Positions 35,090 through 58,583 of a stretch of DNA of 64,000 nt are shown here, in pieces. Each line of letters starts with the position of its first letter. Position 1 is the first letter of the stretch. This DNA comes from a virus. Under the pieces are notes generated by a model that was not told the DNA's origin, ran no database searches, and saw only the letters and a list, made by a program, of their open reading frames with translations. The translations under genes and the position numbers were made by a program. The DNA lies in IMG/VR virus record IMGVR_UViG_3300037466_003379, positions 1-64,000 of that record; one strand, 5' to 3'.

Positions 35090-35103
35090 TTCTCCGCCTT
35101 TTC

Positions 35104-36086: not shown

Positions 36087-36150
36087 GGTGGAACCTCTCG
36101 GGGTTGCGTGCGCGCGGTCGCGCACGGGCGCGTGCACGCGCGAGGACGGG

Positions 36151-37082: not shown

Positions 37083-37469
37083 TTGAAGATCACGACCCTG
37101 CGCACCCTCGCAGGCACGCCAGGCTGCTCGGACTTTCCGACCTGCCCCGGCGTGCACGACCTCGACACGGACCCGGAGCACCGCTACGTGATCGCGAAGA
37201 CCATCACCGACCCGACCGAGCTGGCCGCCTTCGCGGGCGAGCTCGGCGACGGCGAGGTCCCCGGCTGGATGCCTGCAGGCTTCCTTCCCGCCGGCAACGA
37301 GGTCTTCACCCGCACCCGCCGCCTCTGGCAGTCGGGTATGCGCTCGGACCGCGACTACGTGATCACCACGCTGGTCACCGATGCCGCCGTGCTGCAGGAG
37401 TTCGCGCCGCTGATGGCCGCGGACGAGCACCTCGGTACGGTGCCCGTCCGCGCGCTGCTGGAGGTGTGA
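37083..37469 (+). CDS. Hypothetical protein with internal duplication
   Basis: C....TCPGV; YVI..T.TD...L..F unit twice; TTG start after GGAAGGGG. Confidence 0.65.
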   Translation: MKITTLRTLAGTPGCSDFPTCPGVHDLDTDPEHRYVIAKTITDPTELAAFAGELGDGEVPGWMPAGFLPAGNEVFTRTRRLWQSGMRSDRDYVITTLVTDAAVLQEFAPLMAADEHLGTVPVRALLEV

Positions 37470-37472
37470 CCG

Positions 37473-38036
37473 ATGGGTGAGCTGCTCGATGTGCAGGGCC
37501 TGGTCGACGTGCTGAACGAGGGCTCCAGCTCCTCCGGTGACGTGATCTTCCGGCTGGAGCAGATCCCTGAGTACACGGTCGAGTCCGACGGCGGCGACTT
37601 CCAGGCGTGGTCCCGCGGCGTCCGGGAGCCGAACTGGGACCGCAAGCGCGGCTACACGGACCTCCTGGAGGCCCGCACCGCAGCCGGGGTCACCTCGCAG
37701 CGCGTGCGCGTCTTCTCGCCGAACCTGACCGACTACGAGCGCTACGCCTGCGAGTGGGGCTACGCGATCAACGGCCAGTACGGCGAGGACATCCGCGTGC
37801 TGCACCGCGGCGAGCATCGCGTGCCGCCGCTCCTCGGCTTCGACTACTGGCTCCTCGGCCGCGAGACCGTGGTGCGCATGCACTACGACGAGGTCGGTCG
37901 CTTCTGCGGCGCCGAGCTGGCGCCCGAGCTGCTCCGCCAGGTCCTCCGCGAGCGCGACGCGCTGTGGCAGGTCGCGGAGCCGTTCGACACCTGGTACCAG
38001 CAGCACCCCGAGTTCAGACGGCGATTGGCGGCCTGA
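37473..38036 (+). CDS. DUF6879-like protein
   Basis: FRLE..PEY, RVRV...LTDYERY, GEDIR, DYWL...VVRMHYDE.GRF.G. Confidence 0.8.
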   Translation: MGELLDVQGLVDVLNEGSSSSGDVIFRLEQIPEYTVESDGGDFQAWSRGVREPNWDRKRGYTDLLEARTAAGVTSQRVRVFSPNLTDYERYACEWGYAINGQYGEDIRVLHRGEHRVPPLLGFDYWLLGRETVVRMHYDEVGRFCGAELAPELLRQVLRERDALWQVAEPFDTWYQQHPEFRRRLAA

Positions 38037-38042
38037 CCTGCG

Positions 38043-38894
38043 ATGACAGACAGCACTGCGGAGGAGCGGTCCGAGCGGAAGTTCGGGCCGCTCCTTCGTG
38101 CTGCACGGGAGGCGGCCGAGCTCCGCCAGCGGGACGTCGCGGACCGCAGCGGCATCCCGCAGACCCGGCTGTCCCGCATGGAGAAGGACCCGCCGCTGGC
38201 CATGCCCACGCCGGAGCAGGCTCGCACGCTGGCCGACCTCTACCAGCTCGACGACGATGACCGCGCGTTCATCCTCCAGGCCGCAGACGACCACGCAGGC
38301 CGGAAGGACCGCCGCTATCACGTCATGGCCGGGACGAACGTCCTCAGCACGCAGCGGCTGTTCACGCTCCTCGAGCGGGAGGCCAAGCGTCTCCGGGCCT
38401 TCTCTGCCGGCGTCGTCCCCGGATCCGCGCAGACACCCCGGTACGTCGCCGCGATCATGGGCGAGGACGACGAGGCCGGGCCCAGCACGCAGGCGCGGCT
38501 CCCCCGGCTGATCGGGCATCCGGCGAACGCCGGCAAGCAGTACGAGCTGGTCCTCACCGAGTCGGCCGCCGTCATCGCGCTCGCCGCGGACAACGTGATG
38601 GCCGAGCAGTTCGAGGAGCTGGTCCGTCTCTCGGAGCGCCCGAACGTCGACCTCCGGATCATCCGGCGCGGTACGCGGCTCACGCCCTGGACGGTCCCCG
38701 CCATCACCATCTACGACGACGGCCCGGTGGTCCTCGGCCAGCTCCTCGACGGGTACATCCGGTTCGACGAGGGCGAGGACCTCGCCACGAAGTACATCGC
38801 CGAGTTCGAGCGACTGCAGGCCGCGGCGGCAGGTGGCGACGAGGCACGCGAGGCACTCCGGGACATCGCAGCCTGGTATCGGTCGCGGGATTGA
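38043..38894 (+). CDS. XRE-HTH + DUF5753 regulator
   Basis: LRAAREAAELRQRDVA..SGI....LSRME; VPG..QT..Y; LSERPNVDLRII. Confidence 0.85.
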   Translation: MTDSTAEERSERKFGPLLRAAREAAELRQRDVADRSGIPQTRLSRMEKDPPLAMPTPEQARTLADLYQLDDDDRAFILQAADDHAGRKDRRYHVMAGTNVLSTQRLFTLLEREAKRLRAFSAGVVPGSAQTPRYVAAIMGEDDEAGPSTQARLPRLIGHPANAGKQYELVLTESAAVIALAADNVMAEQFEELVRLSERPNVDLRIIRRGTRLTPWTVPAITIYDDGPVVLGQLLDGYIRFDEGEDLATKYIAEFERLQAAAAGGDEAREALRDIAAWYRSRD

Positions 38895-38973
38895 TCCGGC
38901 GCGCCCTCTGGCCAGCGGGCTGAGGCTGGGTTACATTATACCGGTAAACCGGACCGCCGACTTAGGAGGGCTC

Positions 38974-39333
38974 ATGCCCAGGCCCCTGCCGCTGCCGACG
39001 CACGAGCCCGACGCCGAGGCCCGCGAGATCATCGACCGCATCTACGCCTACGCCCGCGACACCGACGACGACACCACCAGCGAGGAACGACTCCAGCGCC
39101 TGGCCTCCGCCATGCACATCTGGATCGCCGCCGAGGCCAGCTGGGAGCACGTCCTCGTCGAAGCCAAGAGCCAGGCCAACCCCGGCTGGCTCTCCTGGGA
39201 CCGCCTGGTCGAGAAGACGAAGATGCGGCTCTCCACGATGCAGGACCGCATCGGCAAGGGCCCGGCCCGGTACCGCGCCACCCAGGTCCACCACGAGCTG
39301 CCCTCCCCCCGGCGTAGCCGCGAGGTCGCGTAG
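38974..39333 (+). CDS. Small HTH-like protein
   Basis: AGGAGG RBS; LSWDRLVEKTKMRLSTMQDR. Confidence 0.6.
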   Translation: MPRPLPLPTHEPDAEAREIIDRIYAYARDTDDDTTSEERLQRLASAMHIWIAAEASWEHVLVEAKSQANPGWLSWDRLVEKTKMRLSTMQDRIGKGPARYRATQVHHELPSPRRSREVA

Positions 39334-39364
39334 CCCCTCCCCGCTCCGCTCCGGCGGTAGCGGT

Positions 39365-39640
39365 CTGACCTGCGTGTTGCACTGCAACATCGCGACATAG
39401 GAACACCCGCACACTGCGACGGCGTCACGGTGTGCGGGTGTTCTGCTGTTGCGGCGTTGCTCTGTCGCGTTGTGCCCCTGTCGCACCGCGACTCCGTTGC
39501 GGTGTTGCTGCGACACGCCGTTGCGCTGTGCGCCTGTCGCACCGTCACAGTGCTGCTACGTTGCCCAGCGACACTGCGACACCCGAACAGAGCAACGGTG
39601 TGCCACCCACACACCGTGTCGCTGTGCCACTGCAACACGA
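39365..39640. repeat. Degenerate ~8-bp-period TGTTGC/TGTCGC/GCAACA/GCGACA array (candidate parS-L)
   Basis: Dense repeats directly upstream of parA. Confidence 0.7.
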
Positions 39641-39674
39641 CCCCAACGCGCCCGACCCGACCCCGAGGTGATCA

Positions 39675-40463
39675 GTGCCTGCCGAGACGATCTGCATGGC
39701 GAACTTCAAGGGCGGGGTCGCGAAGTCGACGACGTCCGTCAACGTGGCCGCCACGCTCGCCCAGCGCGGCCATCGGACGCTCCTGGTCGACTGCGACCCG
39801 CAGGCCAACTCCAGCGAGATGTTCCTCGACGAGGACGCCATCGAGATGGACCTCCGCTCGATCATCGTCGAGAAGGAGGAGACCGAGAAGGTCATCCAGC
39901 AGACGCGGATCGGGAACCTCGACGTCCTGCCGGCCAGCTTCGACCTGGCGTTCCTGGACAAGGAACTCGTCGTGTCGCCGAACGGCGTGCAGCGCATCGA
40001 CCGCGCGCTCCGGCCCGTCCGCGAGCTGTACGACTACATCGTGATCGACACCGGCCCGAACCTGTCGCACCTGACGCTGGGCGCGCTCGCCGCGTCCCAG
40101 CACGTCGTCATCCCGGTCTCCGCGACCGTGTGGGCGTCGAAGGGGCTGCTCAAGTTCGTCCGGTGGATCGACGGCAACCGCGACGAGGAGGTGCTCGCCG
40201 CCGAGCTTCTCGGCCTCGTCGCGACGATCGTGCAGCCGAGCACCCGGATCGGGCGCGCCCTGCTCGAGGACCTGCCGCAGTCGGGCATGCCGAGCTTCCG
40301 CACCTTCATCCCGCGGCGGATCAAGGCTGAGGACGCCGTTATGGACCGGCTCGTCGTGGGGGAGCCTGGCGTCGACATCAGCCTCACCACGGCCTATCAG
40401 GATCTGACGACCGAGCTGGTCGAGCGGATCGCGAAGGCGAAGGGGCCACGCCATGCCCGGTAA
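39675..40463 (+). CDS. parA: ParA partition ATPase
   Basis: NFKGGVAKST, LLVDCDPQAN, YDYIVIDTGP. Confidence 0.93.
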   Translation: MPAETICMANFKGGVAKSTTSVNVAATLAQRGHRTLLVDCDPQANSSEMFLDEDAIEMDLRSIIVEKEETEKVIQQTRIGNLDVLPASFDLAFLDKELVVSPNGVQRIDRALRPVRELYDYIVIDTGPNLSHLTLGALAASQHVVIPVSATVWASKGLLKFVRWIDGNRDEEVLAAELLGLVATIVQPSTRIGRALLEDLPQSGMPSFRTFIPRRIKAEDAVMDRLVVGEPGVDISLTTAYQDLTTELVERIAKAKGPRHAR

Positions 40464-40896: not shown

Positions 40897-40992
40897 GCGT
40901 GACTAGCCCTAGCGCGGAACCCAGATCCGACCTTCTCGCGCAGTCACTCCAGGACCACTCGGCCCCGGCCTCTACGGAGGTCGGGGCCTTTT
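40897..40992 (+). ncRNA. Candidate ~95-nt small RNA or attenuator leader
   Basis: TATAAT at 40885-40890, GTGACT/AGTCAC stem, terminator ggccccggcctc-tacg-gaggtcggggcc-tttt (40961-40992). Confidence 0.45.
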
Positions 40993-41114
40993 CGTTAGCG
41001 GCCGTAACCAACCGCCCACAGCGGACGATCAACTACCCGAACGCCGCCCGAGCCGTTGACACCCCCAGCGGCCCGAAGCGTGCTCCCCGGCACCTGAAAG
41101 TGAGTTACCCCCCG

Positions 41115-42659
41115 ATGGCTCACCCTGCTCTGCCCATGCCCGAACGCGCCGAATCCCCGTCCGGCCGCCACCACCGCCCCGAGATCTCCATCCCGGCCCA
41201 GCGCGCCGCGGCCGAGGACATCACCCAGGCGATCCCGAAGGTCCGCGCCGACTGGCGCGAGGCGCCCACTACGCGCTTCCCAGCCGTCCAGCGGCTGGTC
41301 GAGGTGACCCGCGCGCTGCCGCGCGTCCCTCGCGGCGTCGCGCTGCGCCGGCCGAACCTGGAGACCGAGGTGACGGTCAAGGCGAACCCGTGGCTCGTCG
41401 CCTTCCTGTTCGCCGTCGTCGGCGCCGCCGCAGCCGCATGGTTCTCGTGGCGCGGAGCCCCGTCCTGGTCGATCTACGGCATCGCCGTCTCGGTCCTCCT
41501 CGGCGCGAAGCTGCTGCTGTCGCTGCTCCCGCCGCCCCGCTGGGAGCCCGCCCCCGAGGGGAAGCGGGTCTGCGTCGTCGTCCCGATCTTCAACGAGGAC
41601 CCCGAGATCCTCGCCCGCTGCCTCGCCTCGATCGACGCCCAGACTTACCAGCCGACCCACGTCCGGATCATCGACGACGGCTCCTCCGCCCCCGAGGCCC
41701 ACAACTACGCGATCCAGTGGGCGATGGACCGCGCCAACGCCCGCGTGATCTTCCAGCACAACGCCGGCAAGCGTGAGGCGATGGGGCAGGCGTTCCGCGA
41801 GCTCGGCGAGCAGGTCGACCTGTTCGTGTGCGTCGACTCCGACACGGTCCTCGAGCCCGAGGCCATCCGCGAGGGCCTCGCCCCGTTCTCGGACCCGCGC
41901 ACCGCCGCCGTCACCGGCACCGTCGTCGCCCTCAACCAGGACCGCGGCCTGCTGCCCGGCCTGCTCGACCTGCGGTACGTCAACGCCTTCCTCTACGAGC
42001 GGGCCGCCTACAGCCGCCTCGGCTCCGTCCTCTGCGTGTGCGGCTCCCTGGCGATCTGGCGGGCGGACATCGTCCGCGCCCACCTCGACGACTTCCTCGG
42101 CCAGCAGTTCCTGGGGGAGCCCTGCTCGTACGGCGACGACCGGCACTTGACGAACCTGTCGCTACTGCACGGCCGCGTCGTCCTCGCGCACAAGGCGATC
42201 GCGCGCACCGCCGTGCCAGAGAAGGGCGGGCACCTGATCCGCCAGCAGGTCCGGTGGGGCCGCTCCTTCTTCCGCGAGTCCCTGTGGGCGCTGCGGAACC
42301 TGGGGCCGAAGCGCGCCGCCTGGTGGCTGTCCGCCCTGGAGTCCGTGTCCTGGGCCGGGTTCACCGTCGGCATGATGTTGTCCCTGTTCGTCCTGCCGGC
42401 GATCAGCGGGCAGGCTCACTGGCTGGACTACCTGGGCTGGGTGTTCCTCGCCGGGTACGGCCGCTCGGTGCACGTCTTCTCGGTGCGGCGCACCAGCTGG
42501 GCGCGCTGGCGGCAGGCCGCGATCTTCCTCCTCGCCCCGGCCTACGGGATGATCCACGTCCTCGTGCTGCTGCCGCTGCGGCTCTACTCCCTCGCCACGC
42601 TCCGCGCGACGAGCTGGGGCACCCGCTCCGGCGGCGTCGAGGTCGCCGAGACGGCCTGA
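41115..42659 (+). CDS. GT2 processive glycosyltransferase, hyaluronan synthase/NodC-like
   Basis: VPIFNED, IIDDGS, NAGKREA, VDSDT, CGSL, YGDDRHLTN, QQVRW, SWGTR; TM helices; start chosen after GAAAGTGAG. Confidence 0.88.
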   Translation: MAHPALPMPERAESPSGRHHRPEISIPAQRAAAEDITQAIPKVRADWREAPTTRFPAVQRLVEVTRALPRVPRGVALRRPNLETEVTVKANPWLVAFLFAVVGAAAAAWFSWRGAPSWSIYGIAVSVLLGAKLLLSLLPPPRWEPAPEGKRVCVVVPIFNEDPEILARCLASIDAQTYQPTHVRIIDDGSSAPEAHNYAIQWAMDRANARVIFQHNAGKREAMGQAFRELGEQVDLFVCVDSDTVLEPEAIREGLAPFSDPRTAAVTGTVVALNQDRGLLPGLLDLRYVNAFLYERAAYSRLGSVLCVCGSLAIWRADIVRAHLDDFLGQQFLGEPCSYGDDRHLTNLSLLHGRVVLAHKAIARTAVPEKGGHLIRQQVRWGRSFFRESLWALRNLGPKRAAWWLSALESVSWAGFTVGMMLSLFVLPAISGQAHWLDYLGWVFLAGYGRSVHVFSVRRTSWARWRQAAIFLLAPAYGMIHVLVLLPLRLYSLATLRATSWGTRSGGVEVAETA

Positions 42660-42710: not shown

Positions 42711-43787
42711 TCAGCGCTCGTACTCGATGCCCAGGTGCAGGCCGCCCGGTGCCGCGTAGCGGGCCACGAGGAACGTGCACCAGCCCGGGAGCGGCTGCGC
42801 GGGCAGCGACAGGTTCCCGATCAGCGGAGCGTTCACCACCAGGTTCTTCACCTGCGGCGTCCGGTAGGTGATGTCGGTGAAGTAGAAGACCCGCAGGTAC
42901 TCCAGGAACCCGGACGGCTTGAGACGACCCGTCGAGTCCACGGCTTCCTGGCCACCGGCCCATCCGCACGTGATGCTCGAGACCGAGCCGTTCCCGCGCC
43001 AGCCTCCGCCGCCTGGCACCGCCGGGACGAGCGCGCTGTGGACCTCGCCGGAGCGCGGCCACTGGGCGGGGTCGAGGTCCTGCCACCGGCCACCGGCCGG
43101 GTCGGCCGGGTAGTCGGTGGCGGGGAAGCTGATGAGCGCCACGGCGTCCTCCGAGCTGCGGCCCGCCGGACCGGCGGGCGATGGTTGTGGGGGAGCGAAG
43201 GCCGGGTACTGGCCGTAGTTGTCGGCCCGGATCTGGTCGACGTCGCACTGGACGCCGCCCACGTTCGTTGTGCCGACCTGCTGGTAGAGCTGGGAGCGGT
43301 CGTCGATGTGCCCGTACTGCCATCCGGCGGCGGACCAGCCGAAGGTGGCGTAGCCGCGGTCCAGGGCGTCGGAGATGACGGAGCGGCCGCCGTAGACGCC
43401 GAGCTTCGCGACGCCGACGACGGAGCCACAGCCGTCCGCGTAGGCGCGGGCCAGCGGGAGATCCTTCGTGACGACGTCCTCGTCGAAGGCGAAGTACACG
43501 CAGCCGACCCGCCCCCAGTCGAGCCCGAGGTCGGCGAGGTGCGCCTTCACTGCCTGGGCGTCAGCGACCCCGCGAGCTCGGCCGCCGCGCCACGACCCGG
43601 TGGTGTCCTCGTAGACGAGGATCAGCTCCAGCCCGTTCGCGAGGTAGTCGGACACCTGCTCGGCGCTGGGCGCCTTCCGCCGGCCCGGGGTGCCCACGTA
43701 GAGCGCGATCGCCCGATAGCCCGCGGCGCGGACCTGGGCGCCGGTCGGATGGCCGACGCAGTCGATCGCGAGGCCGACGACGCTCAC
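42711..43787 (-). CDS. Endolysin, DUF1906/Rv2525c-like glycoside hydrolase
   Basis: GL.LILVYE, G.ADAQA, VYFAFDED, GVYGG, LYQQ....VGGVQCDVD; adjacent to holin. Confidence 0.8.
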   Translation of the reverse strand: MSVVGLAIDCVGHPTGAQVRAAGYRAIALYVGTPGRRKAPSAEQVSDYLANGLELILVYEDTTGSWRGGRARGVADAQAVKAHLADLGLDWGRVGCVYFAFDEDVVTKDLPLARAYADGCGSVVGVAKLGVYGGRSVISDALDRGYATFGWSAAGWQYGHIDDRSQLYQQVGTTNVGGVQCDVDQIRADNYGQYPAFAPPQPSPAGPAGRSSEDAVALISFPATDYPADPAGGRWQDLDPAQWPRSGEVHSALVPAVPGGGGWRGNGSVSSITCGWAGGQEAVDSTGRLKPSGFLEYLRVFYFTDITYRTPQVKNLVVNAPLIGNLSLPAQPLPGWCTFLVARYAAPGGLHLGIEYER

Positions 43788-44194
43788 CGATCACCGTCCT
43801 GGGTCGTGGCCGGCGGAGCGGCCGTCAGCTGCGGGCAGTAGTAGACGGCGCCGCTGTCGGTGGCGTAGCAGTCGCCGACCTTCACGCCGACGTGGATGTG
43901 CACGACCGGCGCCGGGACGGCGACGACCTCGTGCTGCACGACCGGGGCGACCTCGCCGACCGGGGTCGCGAGCCGCACGGTCGGGGCCGCGTCCGGGCGG
44001 CCCTGCCACAGCCCGAGGTCGGCGCCGAGGAAGGCGACGGACACGAGCGCCAGCAGCACCAGTCCAGCGGCGCCACCAGCGAGCAGATGAGGGGGCCGGA
44101 GGCTCCGCGACGCGAAACCCCGGCGGGAGTGCCTGGGGGACAACTGGGCCGCCTTCCGGAGGGGTTGGGGCCGTCGGGTCCGCGCCCTCTCCAC
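43784..44194 (-). CDS. Membrane protein of lysis cassette
   Basis: Single TM; coupled to endolysin. Confidence 0.5.
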   Translation of the reverse strand: MERARTRRPQPLRKAAQLSPRHSRRGFASRSLRPPHLLAGGAAGLVLLALVSVAFLGADLGLWQGRPDAAPTVRLATPVGEVAPVVQHEVVAVPAPVVHIHVGVKVGDCYATDSGAVYYCPQLTAAPPATTQDGDR

Positions 44195-44221
44195 ACGGAC
44201 CCGACGGCGATCATGGGACGC

Positions 44222-44602
44222 CTACTCGGCGGCGGCCGCGGCGGAGAGCACCGCGATCTGGGCTGCCGTCTGCCCGGAGGCGGGAACGGCGGGGAACTCG
44301 ACGGTCGCCGGACCGGACGGCGCCGCAGGTACGTTGCCGACGGCGACGTCCGCGGGGGCGACCACGGTCGGTGCGACCGGGGCCGCTGGTGGGGCCTGGG
44401 CGCCGGCCAGCGCGGAGATCCGCACCCCGGCGACCTTGAGCAGGCACAGCAACGCGGCCGTGCCGCCCCCGGCGAGCGCGGCCCGCCAGTCGAACGTGTG
44501 CAGCTCGACCGCTGTCCCTCCGGCGGTGATTGCGCCGGCGAGGGACTGCACGAACGTCCAGCCGACGCGCTCGGCCAGGTCGATCCACGGCTTGGTGGTC
44601 AT
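44222..44602 (-). CDS. Holin (r1t-like)
   Basis: W.DLAERVGWTFVQS...DWRAALAGG.TAALL.LLK. Confidence 0.78.
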   Translation of the reverse strand: MTTKPWIDLAERVGWTFVQSLAGAITAGGTAVELHTFDWRAALAGGGTAALLCLLKVAGVRISALAGAQAPPAAPVAPTVVAPADVAVGNVPAAPSGPATVEFPAVPASGQTAAQIAVLSAAAAAE

Positions 44603-45039
44603 GACGGGTCGGGCTCCTTCCGGGGTGCCGTCCGCCGCCTGCGAGGCTTCGGCGCGGCCGGGGGCTCTGGGGTGTCGAACAGGCCTTCGGGGATCACCCC
44701 GTCGGGCACGGACACGGCCGGGGCCGGGGGGACGTCGCCGCCGAGGCCGCGGATCCGGTCGATGAGGGTCCGCAGGTATTCCCGCAGCCAGGCGATCTCT
44801 GCGCGCAGCGCGTTCTCCCGGCGGGCGAACTTCGCGCGCTCGGTCTCGACCAGCCCGGACCAGTAGGCGACTTCCTCCCGCAGCACGGGCAGTAGGGAGA
44901 CGGCGGTCTTCACGGCGTCGGCGTCGGACTTCGACCGGGCCGCGCGGCGCTTCGCTCCGATGGTGAACAGGGCCGAGATCCCGGCCGCGCCACCGAGTGC
45001 ACCGAACACCTGGCTGGCCTGGTCGGCGATTCCGCTCAC
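44599..45039 (-). CDS. TM + coiled-coil lysis-region protein
   Basis: N-terminal TM, coiled coil, PP.P tail. Confidence 0.65.
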   Translation of the reverse strand: MSGIADQASQVFGALGGAAGISALFTIGAKRRAARSKSDADAVKTAVSLLPVLREEVAYWSGLVETERAKFARRENALRAEIAWLREYLRTLIDRIRGLGGDVPPAPAVSVPDGVIPEGLFDTPEPPAAPKPRRRRTAPRKEPDPS

Positions 45040-45497
45040 GGGCTTTCTCCGAGCTCAGGTGGAGGGCGCAGCTTCTCCACCCGGTAGTCGAGCGAGTGCG
45101 AGATGTGCAGCACGGCGACGGCGAAGTAGACGATCGGCCCGGTCAGGGCTGCGTGCGGGTCGTGCCGGACGGCCTCGATGAGCGCGATTGACCACAGCAG
45201 GTACAGGACGCCGCCGAAGGTGAACGCCCAGCGCAGCGGCCGGAGCCCGGCACCACGCCCGGCGAGCATCGACGCCGCGAGCGCCCCGAACACCAGCCCC
45301 CAGGTCGTGGCGCCGCCGTACTGGCGGATCACCGCGAAGGACGGGCCTGCGACGCGGAGCGGGTCCCCGGCGAGCAGCACCCACGCCATTCCCGTCGCGG
45401 CGGCGCCGAGCGCGAGCCAGCCGCGGCGCAGGACGTCCTTCTCGTCCCACACGGCATCCACGTCCGGGGCGACGTCGAGCACCCGGGGGAGCTTCAC
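45036..45497 (-). CDS. 4-TM membrane protein
   Basis: Hydrophobic, coupled. Confidence 0.65.
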   Translation of the reverse strand: MKLPRVLDVAPDVDAVWDEKDVLRRGWLALGAAATGMAWVLLAGDPLRVAGPSFAVIRQYGGATTWGLVFGALAASMLAGRGAGLRPLRWAFTFGGVLYLLWSIALIEAVRHDPHAALTGPIVYFAVAVLHISHSLDYRVEKLRPPPELGESP

Positions 45498-47808: not shown

Positions 47809-50688
47809 TCAATAGACAGGGGTCGTCGACGTCCCGAGGACCCCAAGCGTGGAGTCCCCGAGGACCCACGCGGACGGCACGAACACCGGGGAGAGCTGCA
47901 GGTCGACGGTCCAGTCGCCCGTCTCCCCGTCGACGCGATGGTCGATCTTCTCGATGTAATACTCGCGCGACGTCGTCAGCGACATCGAGCGCCTGTTGAC
48001 CCGGACCCGCTGGGAGATCTCCAGCGACAGCACGACCGGCCACAGCGCCGGGTTCGCCGACGGCTTCAAGGTCAACTTCGTGACCCGCGTCTTCGGCGAC
48101 CCGTACCGAGCGAGGTAGTGCACACCGGCCTGCTCGACGTCGAAGTCCGTCGTCACCTGCAGCGTCTGCGTCAAGATCCGCTGCCCGTACGTCGCCTCCG
48201 CCGCCGAGTTGACCATCGGGGCGATCGCACTGTTGTCCGGCCGCGACAGGTTGGCCTGGGAGAACACGTACGTCGGGTCGTGGTCCGTCGTGAGGTCCTG
48301 GTACGGGTACTCCGTCGGCGACGCCCCGGCCGGGTTCTCCCCGAACGTCCACAGCGCCGTCTGGTTCGCGTACCTCGAGCGCCGCGACTCGACCCGAGCG
48401 TTGCCCTCCTTCGTCATGTAGACGAGGCCGCGCTCCGTCTCCGCCACCTCCTGGAGGACGTCCAGCAACGTCCGCCCGTCATAGGAGAAGTCAGCGGCCA
48501 GCTTCACCGTCCCGGCGTCGACCCATATCGAGCCGCCCCACCACTGGTTCAGCAGGCGGATCGCCCGCGCCCCGGAGTCCTCGACGCCGGAGTAGCCGAT
48601 CCCGCGCCAGTACAGGGCCGCCTGCTCGGTGAGCGTGAGCAGCCGGTTGAAGACGGCGAACCGGCCCGTCGACATCTGCGACTGCGGGTAGCCGAAGCCG
48701 GTCGACGCCGAGAAGAACCCGGCGACGTTGAAGCCGATCTGCGCAGGCTGCGAGCCCACGGCGATGGATGAGCCGCGGAGGTTGTCCGTCCCCCGCATCC
48801 ATCCACCCGTCGCGTCGAACCCGAGCAGGTGCATGTGCCACTGGTTGTCCTGCCACAGCCGCCCGCCGCCCGCGATGGCGGTGGTGATCGACGCGCCGCC
48901 CTCGACCGGCCGGTAGCGGTAGTAGACCTCCTCCGTGGTTCCGTCACCGGCCCGGATCGCCAGCTGGACGTGCGTGGAGTCCGTCGGGAAGTTCGACGCC
49001 CCCGGGGCCACGTACAGCCCCGGCGCCTGCCACGCCCCGATCGCCGGCCGGATCCAGATCACGAAGCACGACCCGGTCGTCGACATGGAGATGCGGCCGC
49101 CGATCGGCTCCATGTAGGTGTCGTTCAGCGAGCCGCTCCGCGACGGTGGGTTCTCCGGGTTCTGCTGCGTGAACGTCACCGCCGGGTGCCCGTCGGGGTG
49201 GCTGTCGCCCGCCCAGTTGATCTGCGACGACTGCGGCACGTAGTAGACCGGTGTCGCACCCGTCCCGGTCCCGAGCTGGCCTTGCCCCGCTGGCGCGGAG
49301 GCGTTGTCGAGCGGCATCGACGCGATCGGGCCCAGCCCAGACAGGACGGACTCGTAGTCCTGCTTCACCGTCGCCCGCGACATGATCGCGAGCCCGTCGA
49401 CCAACGTCATGGGCTTCTGCGCGCGGACACCGCCCATGTCCCACGACGTGGGGAACCGTTCCGCGTAGCCCGTGATGATCGGGTAGAGCGACGGCCCGGT
49501 CGCCTGCCACGCCGTGAGCGTGGACCCGAACTCCAGCTGCTGCTCGTCGACGTAGAACGTCGGCGTGGTCGCCCCCGACCCGTAGACGTAGACGTCCTCG
49601 AGCGTGTCGACGGGATTCCAGGCGACATAGATCCTGGTCCAAGCGTTCACTGCCGTGGTGGCGGTGCCCTGGTGCCAGTTCCCGGCGGCGTCCATGATCC
49701 CGCAGGTCACGGTGCCGTTGGTCGGGTACACCCAGACGGAGAAGGTGTAGGTGACGTCGGGGGCGGTGCGGAACCCGTTCACCACGCCGAAGGACGCTCC
49801 GGCGGCGCCCTGGGTGACCAGCATCGACTTCGCGCCCGAGTGCTTCTGCACCGTCGACAGGGCGGCCGTGGTGCCCACGTCGACCGGCACCCACCCGGAC
49901 GTCGTCCCCTCAAACCCGGGGTCGTAGCCGGACCAGACGGTCGGGTTGATGATGTTCCCCGAGCCCGGCTGGTTCGGCCACATCGCCCAGATCCACGCGG
50001 CCCGGTACGGGGTGACCCTGGCGTTCGAGGTCGTCGTGGTGCCCGCCAGCGGGAAGGTGTCGCCGCCCGGGTACACGCCAGACCCGGGGGACGTGCCCCC
50101 GGTCGTCGTCGCCCCGTTGAAGGGCGAGTTCCCGTTGTCCGGGTTGAGCAGCTCCAGCGGGTCCGGCAGGTCGAGCTCAGCGGTACCGGCCTGCACCTGG
50201 TCCAGCTCGTACTGGCGGCCGCGGGACGTCGACCAGCGGCGCACGAACAGCCGCTTCGCCACCGCGTTGATCGAGTTCCGGGCGCCTGTCGGCCTGCCGG
50301 GCGGCCCGGAGGTGAAGTCGACCTCGAAGCCGACGAGCGGCCAGTTCGGGTTCGCCAGGGTCGCAGGCTGCCCCGCCCCGACGAGGACCTGACTCGTCAG
50401 GTCGACGCCGCCGACGCTCTCGGACAGGGACCGCGGATAGGTGACCAGCCGAGAGGTGCCGTCCGCTCCGCCGACCGCCTCGGTGGTGGACCGCGGCCAG
50501 TACCAGGAGGTGCTGTCCGCCCCGCCAGCCGTCTCGCTGATGGACCGCCCGTAGGCGACGGCCCGGGTGGTGCTGTCAGATCCGGCGACGGTCTCGGCAG
50601 TGGAGCGGGGCCCGCCTGGCGTGGTGCCTGCGTCGAGCGCGTGCCGGATGACCGGGCGGAGCGGGAAGGAACGCCCGAAGCGTGCCAC
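47809..50688 (-). CDS. Large minor tail protein with carbohydrate-binding and LamG-like regions
   Basis: RGRQYELDQVQAG; PGFEG...W CBM-like segment; ends WVLGDSTLGVLG.ST...Y. Confidence 0.8.
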   Translation of the reverse strand: MARFGRSFPLRPVIRHALDAGTTPGGPRSTAETVAGSDSTTRAVAYGRSISETAGGADSTSWYWPRSTTEAVGGADGTSRLVTYPRSLSESVGGVDLTSQVLVGAGQPATLANPNWPLVGFEVDFTSGPPGRPTGARNSINAVAKRLFVRRWSTSRGRQYELDQVQAGTAELDLPDPLELLNPDNGNSPFNGATTTGGTSPGSGVYPGGDTFPLAGTTTTSNARVTPYRAAWIWAMWPNQPGSGNIINPTVWSGYDPGFEGTTSGWVPVDVGTTAALSTVQKHSGAKSMLVTQGAAGASFGVVNGFRTAPDVTYTFSVWVYPTNGTVTCGIMDAAGNWHQGTATTAVNAWTRIYVAWNPVDTLEDVYVYGSGATTPTFYVDEQQLEFGSTLTAWQATGPSLYPIITGYAERFPTSWDMGGVRAQKPMTLVDGLAIMSRATVKQDYESVLSGLGPIASMPLDNASAPAGQGQLGTGTGATPVYYVPQSSQINWAGDSHPDGHPAVTFTQQNPENPPSRSGSLNDTYMEPIGGRISMSTTGSCFVIWIRPAIGAWQAPGLYVAPGASNFPTDSTHVQLAIRAGDGTTEEVYYRYRPVEGGASITTAIAGGGRLWQDNQWHMHLLGFDATGGWMRGTDNLRGSSIAVGSQPAQIGFNVAGFFSASTGFGYPQSQMSTGRFAVFNRLLTLTEQAALYWRGIGYSGVEDSGARAIRLLNQWWGGSIWVDAGTVKLAADFSYDGRTLLDVLQEVAETERGLVYMTKEGNARVESRRSRYANQTALWTFGENPAGASPTEYPYQDLTTDHDPTYVFSQANLSRPDNSAIAPMVNSAAEATYGQRILTQTLQVTTDFDVEQAGVHYLARYGSPKTRVTKLTLKPSANPALWPVVLSLEISQRVRVNRRSMSLTTSREYYIEKIDHRVDGETGDWTVDLQLSPVFVPSAWVLGDSTLGVLGTSTTPVY

Positions 50689-51651: not shown

Positions 51652-53163
51652 TCACTGCACCGTGAGGGTCAGGTCGTCCGAGCCGGCGCCCGTGGCGGTG
51701 TACCGGAGGACGAAGGTGCCGATCTGGGAGTCCGAGGGCGGGCTGGGCCGGGTCGACATCGTGTAGCTGTCGCCGTAGACCGACCAGGAGAACGGGGTCA
51801 GCAGGCTGAACTTCCCGGCGCTGATCAGGCTCCTGTAGATGGTCGAGCGCCCGTCGCTCTGGTAGTCGCCCCAGGACTGCAGGACGGCGTCGCGGAGATC
51901 GCAGATCTTCGTGAGGTAGGCGCTCTCGGTGCCACCGGCGGATGGCGGCTTCGACGTGCTGGCGCGGGCGGCTGCGATGATGCCGCCGTAGCTCTCGGAG
52001 TCGGTACCGGGGCCGTGATTAACCAAAACGTCGTAATGCAATGCGAGGCCGAGTGGGCTAACCCCGTCCTGCAGCGCGTTCTTGAGCGCGTCGTCCCAGT
52101 AGATGCTCTTCCGCAGCTCTCGCTGCGCCTGCCGGAACAGCGGGTCGGTATTCGCCGCGCTCGCCCAGGCCGTCTGAAAGGCCGTGCCGAGGTTGGACGC
52201 AGCAGCGCTGGAGGCGCCCGAGCCGTAGCCGACGTTCGCGCAGTTCTGCAGGCCCGTGAGGTACGACGACAGCGGGTTGCTCGTCGGCTTGAGCTGCACA
52301 TACCGCTGCACCAGCTGCAGCATGTCCCCGGTCGCACTGGTGAAGCCGATCAGCCCGCCGGTATAGCCGCGCTGGTCCCCGATGTCCTGAATGTAGTTGT
52401 AGGTCGTCGTCCAGTCCTTCGTGGAGTTCTCCGCGGTCTGGACGATCTCGAAACACATCTCCTGAATAACCGGCTGTCGCAGGTCCGTGGTCCCGGACGG
52501 GGACGACCCGATCGGCCACGACAGCGCCGCCGCCGTCCCGATCGTCGTGCCCTCCCCGAGCGGCCCGGACACGATCGTCCAGGCGCGGCTGGTGATCGTG
52601 ACGCCGGTCGGCTCCGTCGCGGTCCGCGTGAACGTCGACCCGGGAGCGGCAGTCGCGTCCGCGCCAGCGAACAGCGCCCCGGAGGAGGTGGAGCCGCCAC
52701 CCGCCGCGTTGCTGGTGATCGTGACGTCGGTCAGCACCCACGCCCCGGCGAGCGCGCTGTACTCGGCGGAGGCGAGGAGCACCTGGTTCTGCGGCACCGA
52801 GTAGGTCAGGGTCGTGACGCGCGTCGACAGCAGGAAGCCCGACGCGAACGTGCACGTCCGGGCGGCCCCGGACGCCAGCGCGAGCACCTCGTAAAGCTCG
52901 CCATCGGTGACCGCACCCACCGGGACGGGGATCGTCGTGTCGGCGGTCATCGTGAAGTCGGAGATCATGGCATCGTTCGTGCCGGTGTTCCCGGCCCCAC
53001 CGGTGCCGCCGCCCAGACCCTCAAGGGAACTGACCCGGCCCTCGACGGCGTCCAGCCGGAGCGACGCCTCCTTGATCCCGGCCTCCTGGTGGTTCAGGCG
53101 GCCGGCGCTGAGCGGGGTCCCTCCGTTGGGCCCGTCGACCCACGTCTGCTGGTCGTAGGACAT
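51652..53163 (-). CDS. Tail-cluster protein with GH46 chitosanase domain
   Basis: TAENST.DW...Y.YIQDIGDQRGYTGGLIGFTSATGDML, YD..V.HGPG, WSVYGDSY; N-terminal WVDG...GTPLSA.RLN..EAGI fibre-like motif. Confidence 0.88.
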   Translation of the reverse strand: MSYDQQTWVDGPNGGTPLSAGRLNHQEAGIKEASLRLDAVEGRVSSLEGLGGGTGGAGNTGTNDAMISDFTMTADTTIPVPVGAVTDGELYEVLALASGAARTCTFASGFLLSTRVTTLTYSVPQNQVLLASAEYSALAGAWVLTDVTITSNAAGGGSTSSGALFAGADATAAPGSTFTRTATEPTGVTITSRAWTIVSGPLGEGTTIGTAAALSWPIGSSPSGTTDLRQPVIQEMCFEIVQTAENSTKDWTTTYNYIQDIGDQRGYTGGLIGFTSATGDMLQLVQRYVQLKPTSNPLSSYLTGLQNCANVGYGSGASSAAASNLGTAFQTAWASAANTDPLFRQAQRELRKSIYWDDALKNALQDGVSPLGLALHYDVLVNHGPGTDSESYGGIIAAARASTSKPPSAGGTESAYLTKICDLRDAVLQSWGDYQSDGRSTIYRSLISAGKFSLLTPFSWSVYGDSYTMSTRPSPPSDSQIGTFVLRYTATGAGSDDLTLTVQ

Positions 53164-53684: not shown

Positions 53685-54416
53685 TCAGCGGGAGGCCGCG
53701 CGAGCCGCGGCCTGGGGGACGATGAGCCGCCGAGGCGGGGGAGCTGCGGGCGCAGCGGCGGCCTTGAAAGTCGCGATCGAGCATGCCCACGTCGTGCTGG
53801 ACGGGCTGGCGGTGAACGTGCCGGTCTGCGCCCCGGTGGCCGAGACGATCTGGTCTTCGAATGCGGTGTCATAGATGCCGCCCGACCCCGTGAGGACCAG
53901 CTGCTGCTGGACGAGGTTCCCGAACCCCGAGCCGACGCTGTAGGTGTTCGAGCCGTCGTCGGTGATGCCCAGACAGACGACCAGCTCGTCGGCCTGCGTC
54001 GTCGCGGAGCTGGCACCCGATGACAGCGCGAGTCCTGTGCCCTTCGCTGTCTTCGCCTGGTCGAGCGGGGAGGCGGTGAGCAGCCCGCTGTACTCCCGGA
54101 TCCACGCGTTGAACAGGTGCGAGCCGGAGAAGCTGAACGTGAGAGTGATCGTGCCGCCGGTGGTGATCGGCGCGTACCAGAGGTCGAGGCATGCGGCGCC
54201 ACTGGACGAGAAGTTGCTCGCCGCGGTGACGCGGCTCCAGCTGTTGCCGGCGTTGTCCGTGGTGGTGATCGCGTTCGTCACGCCGAGGCCGGAGACGCTT
54301 GCGCCGACGATGAGCGTGTTTCCGGCGGCGCAGGTGACCGACTGGGTCTGCGCAGCGCCGGACGCTGTCGCGTTGTTGACCAGCTTCTGCGTGGTGTTGA
54401 CCAGGGCGACCGCCAC
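53685..54416 (-). CDS. Ser/Thr-rich structural protein
   Basis: GGGAGG RBS; TDNAGNSW, EYSG repeats. Confidence 0.65.
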   Translation of the reverse strand: MAVALVNTTQKLVNNATASGAAQTQSVTCAAGNTLIVGASVSGLGVTNAITTTDNAGNSWSRVTAASNFSSSGAACLDLWYAPITTGGTITLTFSFSGSHLFNAWIREYSGLLTASPLDQAKTAKGTGLALSSGASSATTQADELVVCLGITDDGSNTYSVGSGFGNLVQQQLVLTGSGGIYDTAFEDQIVSATGAQTGTFTASPSSTTWACSIATFKAAAAPAAPPPRRLIVPQAAARAASR

Positions 54417-54475
54417 GGCCCACACCTCCCTTCGTGCTCGAGGTGGGGGCCGTGGCGGTCAGCCACAGGCTGAGG

Positions 54476-54878: not shown

Positions 54879-57800
54879 TCAGCCGAGGCCGAATCCGGTG
54901 TAGTTGGTGCCGTTCTGCGTGTTCCGGATGCCGTGCCGCACCAGCTCCTGCTGCAGCTCGGTGACCAGGTCCTTTGTGGTCCACACGTTCCCCTGGACAG
55001 TGGGGTTGAGGTGGACGACGGTCACGTTCGTTGCGCCCTGGGAGAGGCCAGGCAGGACCGCCGGGGAGGCGGCCTGGAGGGCGCCGGGTCGGACCGTGAC
55101 CGGCATGGCCGCCCCGTCGGTACCGAGCGCGGCGGCCGTCTGGCCGAGGGCCTGGAGGTTCCGGTTCGTGCTCTGCGTCGCCGACACGACCCGATCGGCT
55201 ACCGACTGGGCGGCGGTGACCGCCAGGTCGGCATGGTCGTCGATGCCGTTCGCGAGGCCCTTCATCAGCCACATGCCGGACTCGTGGGCAATGGTGGACG
55301 GGGAGGCGATGCCGAGCGCGGACTTCACGCCACCCCAGAGCGATGACGCCCAGCCGGTGAGCTTGTCCCACACCCACGACGTCATCGAGGTGATGCCGTT
55401 CCACAGGCCGACGAGCAGGTCGTGACCGGCGGAGACGAGCCAGTTCGCGGCCCCGGAGAACAGGTTGATCACGGTCTGCGGCAGCCCGGATGCCCAGCCC
55501 CAGAACGAGTTCCACATATTCTTGAGCCCATTCCAGAGGCCCTCGATTATGTAGCCACCGATTTCCGAGAAGACGGTCGAGGGCGACTGGATGCCGAAGC
55601 CGCTCTTGAATCCGTCGATGAATCCCTTAATGAAATCGGTGATCCCGTTCCAGATATTCGACACCCAATCCGTGAAGCCTTTCCACAGACCGGTGAGAAT
55701 ATTCTTTCCGTGCTCGTAGAGCCACTGCGGCGCCTCGGTGAAAAACGCCTTGATCTTGCCTGGCAGGTCCTTGAACCACTGGACCGTGACCTCCCACTCC
55801 AGCTTGAGGCCGGTAGTGAAGTTGTCCCAGAGTTCCTTCGCCTTGTCGACCAGCCAATTCTTCGCGTCAACGAAGAAATCCTTGATCTTGCCGGGCAGCG
55901 CCTTGAACCAGGCGACCGTTTCATTCCAGGCGTTTGTGACCCCGGTCGTGAAGCCGTGCCACAGCTCCTTCGCCTTATCGGCGATCCAGTTCCCCGCGCC
56001 GACGAAGAAATCCTTGATCCGGCCCGGCAGCGCCTTGAACCAGGCGACCGTTTCATTCCAGGCGTTTGTGACCCCGGTCGTGAAGCCGTGCCACATTTCC
56101 TTGGCCTTGTCGACCAGGGTGCGGGCCAGCTCGCCGAGCTTCTCGCCGATGATGTGGCCCCACTCGCCGGGGCTCTTCGACATGATCGTCTTGACCAGCT
56201 CCGCGCCCTTGCGGAACGGCGTCGTTAGCCAGTCCCACACGTTCGCGAGGGCCCGCTGGATCATCCCGCCGAGGCTCGACAGGCCCTGCCCGATCTTCTC
56301 CGGGATCGACTTGACAAACCCGACCAGGTCACTGATCCGGTCCCCGCACCAGTTGACCGCGGTCGTGAAGGCGCTCTTGACCTTGTCCCAGAGCCCGGAG
56401 AAGAAGTCGGCGACGCCCTGCCAGTGCTGGATCAGCTCGTAGATCCCGAAGGCCAGCAGCGCGACCGCGGCGATGATCGCCAGGATCGGCCAGGTCGCCG
56501 CGATCACCCCGATGGCAGCCTGCGCGGCCGCGATGCCGAGGGCGACGAACGCGGCCACCAGGACCACGCCGATGATCCCGGCGACGATGATCGCGACCGT
56601 CTGGTGCTCGGTCATCCACTTCGTCGCGTCGGCGAAGACGCCGACGATCTTCGACGCGACCGGGAGGAGCTTCTCGCCGATCGAGATCGCCAGCGCCCCG
56701 AGGCCGTCCTTTGCCTGCGAGAGCTTCGTGTTGAACTCCGACTGGATCTCGGCCCAGCCCTTGACGTGGCCGCCGGCCTCGGACGTCGCGCCGGAGATGT
56801 TCTTGATCGCGTCGTTGGTGTAGTCGGCGTTCTCGCCGGTCGTCATCAGCGCGACCTTGAGCCCGGTGGCGTCGCCCATGGCCTTCTGCATGGCCTGGCC
56901 GTAGGTCTGCATGACCTGCTCGCCGGACATGTGGGCCTGGCCGAGCTGGTGGGTCTGCCCGGCCAGCGTCGCGAACGACGTCGCCTGCTTCGCGGAGATC
57001 GGGTCGAGTTCCTTGGCCTGCTTCGTGAACGCGGCCATCGAGATCGACCCGTCCATCACCTTCTGCGCGAGGCCCTGGACGGCGGGTGTGCTCTGCGAGA
57101 CGGCGTTCTTGAGGTCGAGGAAGACCTTCTCCGAGCCGGGCGGCATCGACTTCGAGATCGCCTGCTGCAGCATCTGCATCGTGCCGGCGAGACCGCGCTC
57201 GCCGAGCTTCGCCGCCACGTCGGAGGCGTCGATGCCGAGCGTGGCCATCTCCTGCCGCATCCCGGCCGTGGGCGACTGGAGGTGGCGGATGGCGTCCGCC
57301 ATGTTCTGCGTGGCCTGCTGGGCGGAGATGCCGTGGCTGGTCATCGACGCCAACGTGCCGAGCATGTCGTCGAGGGAGATGTGCGCGGCGGAGGCGAGCG
57401 GGGCGACCGAGCTGAGCGACCCGGACAGCTCCTCGAACGTCATCTTGCCGCTGGCGGTGGCCTGCACCATCTTCGACGTCACCGTCGCGGCGTCGTCCGC
57501 CTTGAGGTGGTAGTCGATCAGCGCAGTGGTGACCGCGTCGGCGACGGTGGTGAGGTCCGCGTTCTCCGTCTTCGCGCCCTCGGCCGCCGCCTTGAGCACC
57601 TTGAGGCCGTCCGCGCCGTGCTGGCCGCCGGACTCCACCTTGTACATGGCGGTGGCCAGTTCGTCGGCGCTGTAGCCGACCTGGCCCGCCATCTCGAGCA
57701 TCCCCTGGCGGACCATGTCCAGGTTCTGCCGCGACTCGTTCGCCGAGGTGACGAGCCGCATCGTGGCCTGGTCGTAGTCGCCGGCCATCTTCACGGCGAT

Positions 57801-58544
57801 GCCACCCGCGGCCGCGGCCGCGAGGCCCATCATCGCGAACTGGCCGCTCGTCAGGCCGACCACCGCGGCGCTGTCGGCGAAGCTGGCCTTGAAGGTCCCA
57901 GCCGCCACGGACAGGGTGCCCATGCTCGCGGCAGTCCCGGCCATCGTCGTTCCGACGAGGGCGTTCGCTTCGGCGGCGCGAGCCTCGGCCGCCTCCATCG
58001 CGGCCAGGTCCCCGACGACCTTGTCTCGCATCAGGCCGTAGGCGGCTGCGGTCTCCTCGGCGGCCGTGGTCGACTTCGCCGCGAAGGCCTCGGCGCTGGT
58101 CGCGGCCTCGCTGTTCGCGGCGACGAACCGGCCGTTGGCGTCCCGCATCCGGCCGGACGCGTCGACCCACGTCCCGGCCGCGGCCTCCGCTCCGGCGGCG
58201 ATCCCGGCCCCGGCGGCGGCGGTGGCCTCCGCGAGTCCGAGCTCCGCGGCGACGGCGGCCTCGATCTCGGCCTGGATCGCCGCCATCGCGGCCCCGGCCT
58301 CACCGGCGGACGCGGTCATCTCCGCACAGGCGGCAGCCCAGGTGCCAGCGGCGGCCTCCGCGGAGGTGCCGAGCATGGCGTTCTGCTCGGCGACGCGGGT
58401 GACCTCCGCGGAGACGCCCTGGAGCGACCCGGCGACCTGAGTGGCCATCCGCTCGCCGGCGGCACCGGCCTCGGTGAAGCCCGCGGTCATCGGGGCGGAC
58501 TCGGCGCGGAGAGTTACGTACAGATCGGCGACCTCATCGGACAC
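54879..58544 (-). CDS. Tape measure protein
   Basis: ~1220 aa Ala-rich, TP901-like core, periodic W/F repeats, GIASPS motifs. Confidence 0.92.
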   Translation of the reverse strand: MSDEVADLYVTLRAESAPMTAGFTEAGAAGERMATQVAGSLQGVSAEVTRVAEQNAMLGTSAEAAAGTWAAACAEMTASAGEAGAAMAAIQAEIEAAVAAELGLAEATAAAGAGIAAGAEAAAGTWVDASGRMRDANGRFVAANSEAATSAEAFAAKSTTAAEETAAAYGLMRDKVVGDLAAMEAAEARAAEANALVGTTMAGTAASMGTLSVAAGTFKASFADSAAVVGLTSGQFAMMGLAAAAAGGIAVKMAGDYDQATMRLVTSANESRQNLDMVRQGMLEMAGQVGYSADELATAMYKVESGGQHGADGLKVLKAAAEGAKTENADLTTVADAVTTALIDYHLKADDAATVTSKMVQATASGKMTFEELSGSLSSVAPLASAAHISLDDMLGTLASMTSHGISAQQATQNMADAIRHLQSPTAGMRQEMATLGIDASDVAAKLGERGLAGTMQMLQQAISKSMPPGSEKVFLDLKNAVSQSTPAVQGLAQKVMDGSISMAAFTKQAKELDPISAKQATSFATLAGQTHQLGQAHMSGEQVMQTYGQAMQKAMGDATGLKVALMTTGENADYTNDAIKNISGATSEAGGHVKGWAEIQSEFNTKLSQAKDGLGALAISIGEKLLPVASKIVGVFADATKWMTEHQTVAIIVAGIIGVVLVAAFVALGIAAAQAAIGVIAATWPILAIIAAVALLAFGIYELIQHWQGVADFFSGLWDKVKSAFTTAVNWCGDRISDLVGFVKSIPEKIGQGLSSLGGMIQRALANVWDWLTTPFRKGAELVKTIMSKSPGEWGHIIGEKLGELARTLVDKAKEMWHGFTTGVTNAWNETVAWFKALPGRIKDFFVGAGNWIADKAKELWHGFTTGVTNAWNETVAWFKALPGKIKDFFVDAKNWLVDKAKELWDNFTTGLKLEWEVTVQWFKDLPGKIKAFFTEAPQWLYEHGKNILTGLWKGFTDWVSNIWNGITDFIKGFIDGFKSGFGIQSPSTVFSEIGGYIIEGLWNGLKNMWNSFWGWASGLPQTVINLFSGAANWLVSAGHDLLVGLWNGITSMTSWVWDKLTGWASSLWGGVKSALGIASPSTIAHESGMWLMKGLANGIDDHADLAVTAAQSVADRVVSATQSTNRNLQALGQTAAALGTDGAAMPVTVRPGALQAASPAVLPGLSQGATNVTVVHLNPTVQGNVWTTKDLVTELQQELVRHGIRNTQNGTNYTGFGLG
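55860..56115 (-). repeat. 132-bp (44-aa) tandem duplication in tape measure
   Basis: WHGFTTGVTNAWNETVAWFKALPG.IKDFFV twice; aagaaatccttgatc at 55873 and 56005. Confidence 0.85.
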
Positions 58545-58583
58545 CGGGCGCACCCCCTCTGAAATGGGACGGAGGTGCTGGCA

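Follow-up and report, generated by a model that had tools for sequence, protein, structure and literature searches.

A chitosanase nested in a split PKD-like domain

The stretch of DNA analysed here, referred to as the window, comprises 64,000 nucleotides (nt) and covers the opening 64 kb of an IMG/VR virus record of 104,105 bp (IMGVR_UViG_3300037466_003379) with a CheckV completeness of 88% and a GC content of ~72%. A late operon on the minus strand runs from head genes through a gene for a tape measure protein of 1,224 amino acids (aa) and a series of tail genes to an endolysin-like gene. The fourth gene after the tape measure gene, followed by more fibre-like genes downstream, encodes a fibre-like protein in which a complete chitosanase of family GH46 is embedded in a PKD-like domain of immunoglobulin (Ig) type (Table 1). 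This position agrees with a first-pass annotation, made from the sequence alone, that had assigned the gene to the tail cluster. The reading frame starts at an ATG (position 53163) with a GAGG motif ~6 nt upstream, and its third-position GC of 0.91 is as in other real genes of the record. Mean hydropathy over 11 residues reaches at most 0.4 in the first 70 aa, in line with the earlier statement that a signal peptide is absent, and an NCBIfam search with the protein returned no match.

The Pfam GH46 profile (PF01374) aligns over its entire length (1-210 of 210) with residues 239-458 (E 3e-55; 187.5 bits against a cut-off of 27), and a six-frame search with the GH46 profile scored 190 bits. Chitosanases in the PDB (4olt, 1chk, 4qwp and 4ily) match residues 222-470, corresponding to the whole mature enzyme, with E-values of 1e-50 to 1e-53, the latter for both 4olt and 1chk. 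An AlphaFold2 model built on 52 homologues reached a mean predicted local distance difference test score (pLDDT) of 87.9, exceeding 95 within the enzyme. In this predicted model, Foldseek returned a template-modelling score (TMt) of 0.92 to 4qwp and 1chk, and VIA-align superposed the two-lobe, α-helical, lysozyme-like fold on chitosanase with Z 29.4 and a root-mean-square deviation (rmsd) of 1.8 Å over 235 residues. The GH46 part is ~42% identical to the chitosanase of Streptomyces N174 (CsnN174, 1CHK), and the same values for mature-enzyme identity and TM score, together with alike catalytic and accessory residues, characterize its relation to the GH46 cluster A enzymes as represented by CsnN174 and the OU01 chitosanase (4OLT, 4QWP). 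These are free secreted enzymes with signal peptides, whereas the present enzyme has none and is nested in an Ig-like domain of a structural protein.

Alignment to 1chk places Glu245, within an AEN motif, at the position of the general acid Glu22 of CsnN174 and Asp263, within IGD, at that of the catalytic base Asp40, so that the two catalytic positions read from these motifs at first pass are retained. Arg265 and Thr268 correspond to Arg42 and Thr45 of the N174 enzyme, and equivalents of Tyr122, Asp145, Arg190 and Arg205 are also kept. Asp280 corresponds to Asp57, which contacts the amino group of the substrate, thereby giving subsite -2 of GH46 clusters A-D its decisive preference for glucosamine (GlcN), and is strictly conserved in these clusters (PMC4663542). 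Judged from the sequence, the active site is intact, with every residue known to be required for hydrolysis by inversion and for recognizing GlcN in subsite -2 retained.

The enzyme interrupts a single K319L-like PKD domain. A homology search recovered six unrelated proteins (P0091-P0096) that hold uninterrupted copies of the flanking domain; in P0091, P0092, P0093 and P0096 the equivalents of residues 166-216 and 482-502 are joined by a 5-residue loop. The copies carry the motifs AGADA...TFTRTATE...RAWTIVSGP...TIGTAAALSW in the first part and GTYVLRYSAT...DD.TVTV in the second, and the spacing between anchor motifs is 29 residues in the uninterrupted copies compared with 289 in proteins carrying GH46. 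When a profile was made from nine copies lacking the insert, it aligned to the protein as two separate matches, with model positions 2-64 on residues 166-229 (66 bits, E 1.4e-22), the last few columns overlapping the N-terminus of the insert, and positions 56-82 on residues 479-502 (E 7e-7). A Pfam search gave no direct match on the split domain of the GH46 protein; in the uninterrupted homologue P0092, residues 219-296 match the K319L-like PKD family PF22352 over 1-84 of 84. Finally, single Ig, PKD and Fn3 structures superpose across residues 162-503 of the predicted model (75-81 residues, rmsd 1.8-2.4 Å, Z 9.0-9.5), including the ColH PKD domain 4u7k (Z 9.3, 76 residues, rmsd 2.1 Å), the AAVR PKD domain 7wjx_R (Z 9.1, 81 residues) and the CbhA Fn3 domain 3pdd; the two segments therefore form one sandwich with the enzyme looped out. 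Collectively, these three independent lines (uninterrupted copies, two-piece profile match and structural superposition) agree and confirm that the nested topology is real, as the first-pass annotation had proposed; the structure prediction that it had recommended as a check yielded both the chitosanase fold and the split sandwich.

With five strands ahead of the insert and two behind it, the graft lies in the E-F loop. The linkers on either side are short (~5 and ~10 residues) and conserved. By standard Ig topology the E-F loop would be at the distal (C-terminal) end of this last domain, which would place the enzyme at the distal tip of the protein. An apparent duplication at the junctions (GTTDLR after strand E and GTFVLRY at strand F) was considered as an insertion scar and rejected: GT.DL..PV can be aligned with the start of mature OU01, a free chitosanase, and the stretch therefore belongs to the enzyme.

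Towards the N-terminus, residues 1-38 match the N-termini of the minor tail protein phrog_2012 (E 3e-7) and the head fibre protein phrog_5711 (E 1e-6), consistent with the fibre-like N-terminus noted at first pass. The single long helix that follows is probably a coiled-coil stalk, through which the protein may form trimers, and leads into a Gly-rich hinge at residues 48-62. Beyond it lies an eight-stranded β-sandwich that the earlier annotation had not mentioned. Modelled alone, this domain reached a pLDDT of 90, and its best structural matches by VIA-align are all phage spike or tailspike domains, at Z-scores (5.5-6.7) too weak for a family to be named.

Table 1. Features of the GH46 tail protein gene and of the surrounding region (window coordinates)
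Feature	Position	Strand	Basis or remark
Whole gene, 503 aa plus stop; fibre-like tail-module protein with nested GH46	51652..53163	-	Open reading frame
Residues 1-22, putative N-terminal virion-anchor motif (TWVDG...TPLSAGRLN)	53098..53163	-	PHROG N-terminus matches
Residues 24-47, single long helix, probably coiled-coil stalk	53023..53094	-	AlphaFold2 secondary structure; low pLDDT as monomer
Residues 63-155, eight-stranded β-sandwich	52699..52977	-	pLDDT >90 in both models
Residues 166-217, first five strands (A-E) of K319L-like PKD domain	52513..52668	-	Uninterrupted copies, structure, profile
Residues 222-470, complete GH46 chitosanase inserted in PKD E-F loop	51754..52500	-	Pfam, PDB, Foldseek, VIA-align
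Residues 479-503, closing strands F and G of the interrupted PKD domain	51655..51729	-	Uninterrupted copies, structure, profile
Glu245 codon (Glu22 of CsnN174, general acid)	52429..52431	-	1chk alignment; codon checked
Asp263 codon (Asp40 of CsnN174, catalytic base)	52375..52377	-	1chk alignment; codon checked
Asp280 codon (Asp57, -2 subsite residue binding the free amino group of GlcN)	52324..52326	-	Alignment; role from PMC4663542
Tape measure protein	54879..58553	-	PF10145 (E 1e-29); tape measure PHROGs (E 1e-85); puts the GH46 gene in the tail module
Gene for a 246-aa protein, second upstream of the GH46 gene	53685-54425	-	Weak BLAST similarity (see text)
959-aa tail-module protein	47809-50688	-	CBM_4_9 domain; phrog_5313
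Three tandem paralogous genes, 192-202 aa	45984-47793	-	C-terminus of phrog_13989
Endolysin-like gene	42711-43787		End of late operon; phrog_13480, Rv2525c-like; ~8 kb from the GH46 gene
GT2 gene, 586-aa membrane protein	40899-42659	+	Processive-synthase motifs
ParA gene	39675-40463		Plasmid-type
XRE-HTH and DUF5753 regulator gene	38043-38894		Plasmid-type
DUF2637 gene	35331-36332		Plasmid-type
TraB/FtsK-like gene	30752-32443		Plasmid-type, beside virion genes

Distribution and conservation of the nested module

The first-pass annotation did not know GH46 as a bacteriophage tail enzyme, and the search of phage databases that it advised overturned this premise. The phrog_20173 profile matches residues 154-502 (E 3e-143; profile positions 245-595 of 598), and tblastn detected the module in 30 Streptomyces phage isolates with identities of 59-65%; it is annotated there as ‘chitosanase’ or ‘glycoside hydrolase’ and located in tail modules in every case. 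The protein is a further member of a known, annotated and experimentally uncharacterized phage family, and GH46 on a phage tail is not new. In the Rimavirus DrGrey, the module protein is gp21, whose gene has the major tail genes on one side and the tape measure gene on the other; its counterpart in phage Ponzi, gp58, follows three minor tail proteins and precedes the lysis genes. Approximately 60 more members were found in a large protein database, many of them on Streptomyces chromosomes and presumably belonging to prophages. In one homologue (P0009) the GH46 module is fused to a Sipho_Gp37 tail domain, and further IMG/VR records carry the module in proteins of 597-1,826 aa, including one (G001) in which it is encoded downstream of the tape measure gene. 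The enzyme occupies tail-module positions in several unrelated phage genome types.

The gp21 ‘chitosanases’ of Rimavirus (phrog_20173; DrGrey, Rima, OlympicHelado and others) and Ponzi gp58 share the PKD-split GH46 module with the present protein over residues 176-503 (68-503 for Ponzi), at the identities given above, and likewise combine an intact active site with a tail-module location; their hosts are Streptomyces. The protein described here is shorter (503 against 597-827 aa), begins with a short putative fibre-type anchor and a probable coiled coil where gp21 and gp58 have N-terminal regions of ~170-270 aa, and is encoded on a 104-kb phage-plasmid-like record.

In the literature, the PhaLP database paper gives a count of 10 for GH46 domains in lytic proteins of phages (PMC8310338), a 2015 review of GH46 contains no phage members (PMC4663542), the Streptomyces phage paper that names the gene merely lists it (PMC8782336), and the only viral GH46 carriers mentioned by Wu et al. 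2022 are chloroviruses (PMC9485262). Literature searches on GH46 as a phage tail enzyme and on hydrolases nested in PKD domains yielded only such gene lists and database counts, with neither an activity test nor a description of the nested topology. The arrangement represents a natural, well-conserved domain insertion, in which a whole enzyme occupies the E-F loop of a PKD-like domain whose halves are both still recognizable against uninterrupted copies, and this design could guide the engineering of enzyme-displaying phage fibres.

Conservation was assessed in 52 members that are 41-72% identical to the GH46 tail protein. Glu is found at position 245 in 51 of them and Asp at position 263 in 50, and the combination of Glu245, Asp263 and Asp280 is kept in 50/52, a pattern that points to purifying selection on the active site. 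The metagenomic homologues P0051 (encoded in L007) and P0052, in which the catalytic Glu, the catalytic Asp or both have been lost along with several accessory residues, keep the overall frame and may be binding-only derivatives. These two proteins, in which both the fold and the PKD frame outlast the catalytic residues, are what would favour reading the GH46 part of the present protein as a catalytically silent, lectin-like module serving as a receptor-binding head; with E245, D263, R265, T268 and D280 all kept here and in 50/52 relatives, we regard such a role as extremely unlikely.

A quick maximum-likelihood tree, midpoint-rooted, places nearly all PKD-nested enzymes in one clade of 67 rows with a Shimodaira-Hasegawa-like approximate likelihood ratio test (SH-aLRT) value of 99; within that clade, eight enzymes that are free or fused in another way form one subclade. 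This topology would fit one ancient graft followed by modular shuffling, statements on a single origin being provisional given the nature of the tree. The GH46 module was also observed in fusion with polysaccharide lyase, GH16 or alginate-lyase domains and in proteins of 1,679-1,826 aa from viral records (P0058, P0064, P0065 and P0066; loci L011-L013), which suggests multi-enzyme tail or secreted proteins.

Proposed function and candidate substrates

On balance, we consider it probable that the protein is a virion tail appendage whose distal tip acts as an endo-β-1,4-glucosaminidase on a GlcN-containing glycan of the host surface during adsorption or penetration. In this view, the gene product would serve as a minor tail protein or side fibre in a temperate phage-plasmid of siphovirus type with a Streptomyces-like actinomycete as host, and would be attached to the tail by its short N-terminal motif and coiled-coil stalk. 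Beyond the stalk would follow the hinge, the β-sandwich and the terminal PKD-like Ig domain, and the mature-length enzyme grafted into the E-F loop of this last domain would be exposed at the distal tip. There it would cut a β-1,4-linked, glucosamine-containing polymer on the host surface, in the manner of a tail depolymerase; a virion depolymerase had also been proposed at first pass, and we regard this as the best reading.

Precedents exist for parts of this scheme. The tail fibre and tailspike depolymerases of Klebsiella, Acinetobacter and Escherichia coli phages follow the same logic of an N-terminal virion anchor combined with an enzymatic head that cuts a surface glycan; in those proteins trimeric β-helix lyases or hydrolases form the body of the fibre, whereas here a globular, α-helical, lysozyme-type enzyme is held in an Ig-like loop. 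Virus-encoded GH46 enzymes are likewise found in the chloroviruses (PBCV-1 A292L and CVK2 vChta-1), and the 65-kDa chitosanase of CVK2 has been described as incorporated into virions. The long form of vChta-1, reported in virions, was proposed to attack the host wall, and the presence of the enzyme in chlorovirus virions is disputed (PMC4663542). The chlorovirus proteins belong to cluster C, act in an algal host with a GlcN-rich wall and carry an N-terminal fusion domain, in contrast to the nested insertion described here.

Several points weigh against this proposal. The N-terminal match to virion proteins is short (38 aa), and the literature searched holds neither virion proteomics nor an enzyme assay for any family member. 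A Streptomyces-like actinomycete as host is suggested only by GC content and by the Streptomyces relatives, and two studies of Streptomyces walls, one of peptidoglycan and one of wall glycopolymers, report no β-1,4-GlcN polymer. In Streptomyces coelicolor peptidoglycan the conversion of N-acetylmuramic acid (MurNAc) to muramic acid (MurN) is the sole glycan modification. The wall glycopolymers reported are a Kdn-teichulosonic acid and a poly(diglycosyl phosphate) (PMC11481543).

The substrate is thus where the proposal is weak. A GH46 enzyme with intact catalytic residues and predicted GlcN specificity has been retained, probably on the tails, in dozens of Streptomyces phages and prophages, and an undescribed GlcN glycan may therefore exist in the hosts. 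Specifically, Streptomyces hyphae or spores might carry a β-1,4-linked, glucosamine-containing surface glycan as a phage receptor or barrier, in the present case possibly made by the NodC/HAS-like synthase of the element itself (see below); we put this forward tentatively and consider it doubtful.

Peptidoglycan itself would be the target if the protein were a virion-associated hydrolase whose lysozyme-superfamily fold cuts murein, perhaps at N-deacetylated MurN sites, allowing the tail to pass through a thick wall. GH46 shares a T4-lysozyme-like fold (PMC9485262), the peptidoglycan-degrading effector VgrG3 of Vibrio cholerae is a structural neighbour (Z 12), GH46 features among the phage lytic protein domains compiled in the PhaLP paper (PMC8310338), and MurN makes up 5-8% in S. 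coelicolor peptidoglycan, with higher values in spores. Nevertheless, the enzyme is ~42% identical to true chitosanases and keeps the Asp that confers the GlcN preference of subsite -2, GlcN was not found in S. coelicolor peptidoglycan, and the 2015 review reports murein cutting for no GH46 enzyme of clusters A-D (PMC4663542); cleavage of murein is thus unlikely.

A target outside the host is also conceivable, the displayed enzyme and Ig-like domains binding or cutting the chitosan of fungal walls and soil organic matter and so aiding the movement or retention of virions in the chitin-rich niches of Streptomyces. Such a role would accord with the lack of a known GlcN polymer in the host and with the digestion of fungal chitosan by secreted actinobacterial GH46 enzymes, the nearest non-phage relatives (PMC4663542). 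Functional chitosanases also occur in soil viruses, although these belong to family GH75 (PMC9485262). The soil viral enzyme V-Csn of Wu et al. 2022, for which endo-chitosanase activity was demonstrated, resembles the present one in being phage-encoded but has an unrelated double-psi β-barrel fold and was read as an auxiliary metabolic gene of a Proteobacteria phage, not as a tail protein (PMC9485262). Here the enzyme is part of a structural tail protein and is not secreted, and the tail-module positions in several unrelated phage genome types fit a function in infection better; we therefore regard an environmental target as distinctly unlikely.

Cleavage of a host-surface glycan by the tail tip, the function we favour, leaves a puzzle that gives the family its wider interest: an active site specific for β-1,4-GlcN polymers appears to be under purifying selection in tail proteins of phages, and no such polymer is known from their hosts. 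Once identified, the substrate would point to a previously unrecognized glycan or receptor on the host surface or else show GH46 to have a further activity.

Gene neighbourhood and the GT2 synthase

The gene series surrounding the GH46 gene combines virion and plasmid functions. Four plasmid-type genes, including those for ParA and a TraB/FtsK-like protein, lie at 30752-40463, and their occurrence together with tail and lysis genes suggests a phage-plasmid. Megablast of positions 40000-64000 against plasmid and phage collections gave no match, and hence no DNA-level similarity to any isolate. The GH46 gene does not have the location expected of an endolysin gene, in a lysis cassette beside holin genes, and a separate endolysin-like gene is present with membrane-protein genes at 42711-45497, ~6-9 kb from the GH46 gene.

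A lone plus-strand gene faces the end of the late operon and encodes a membrane protein of glycosyltransferase family GT2. Its best NCBIfam match is NodC, at 205 bits against a cut-off of 550, and it shares 35-37% identity with NodC of rhizobia, with plasmid-borne GT2 genes of Streptomyces, Pseudonocardia, Lactococcus and Enterococcus, and with gp79 of Streptomyces phage Kromp. Located ~9 kb from the GH46 gene on the same element, this synthase could form a lock-and-key pair with the tail enzyme, the lysogen making an amino-sugar coat that the tail enzyme cuts, either to destroy a receptor or to breach the coat. The NodC chitooligosaccharide synthase as best match, the processive GT2 motifs and the reported combination of chitin or hyaluronan synthases with chitosanases in chloroviruses (PMC5408694) would support such a system. 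However, the GT2 gene is absent from four complete (95-100%) GH46-bearing viral records and from all 30 GH46-bearing isolate phages, Kromp, the only phage with a similar GT2, has no GH46 match, and no CE4 deacetylase was found in the record. Moreover, the NodC score lies far below the family cut-off, so that the match does not fix the polymer made. A conserved pairing of GH46 tail protein and GT2 was accordingly discarded, and we consider a dedicated lock-and-key pair on this element very unlikely.

Among other products of the tail module, the 959-aa protein, which matches phrog_5313 (unknown function), contains a CBM_4_9 carbohydrate-binding domain at residues 256-369 and would provide the virion with a second tail component directed at sugars. 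The three tandem paralogues share the N-terminal motif P.F.DGT...L..L..NLD.L.Q, each matches the C-terminus of the ‘virion structural protein’ phrog_13989, and they may represent alternative small fibre or receptor-binding proteins. By eye and by weak BLAST similarity, the product of the 246-aa gene resembles the N-terminal domain of P0091, P0092 and P0096, behind which their uninterrupted PKD-like copies lie; from this resemblance, modules appear to have been shuffled among tail proteins.

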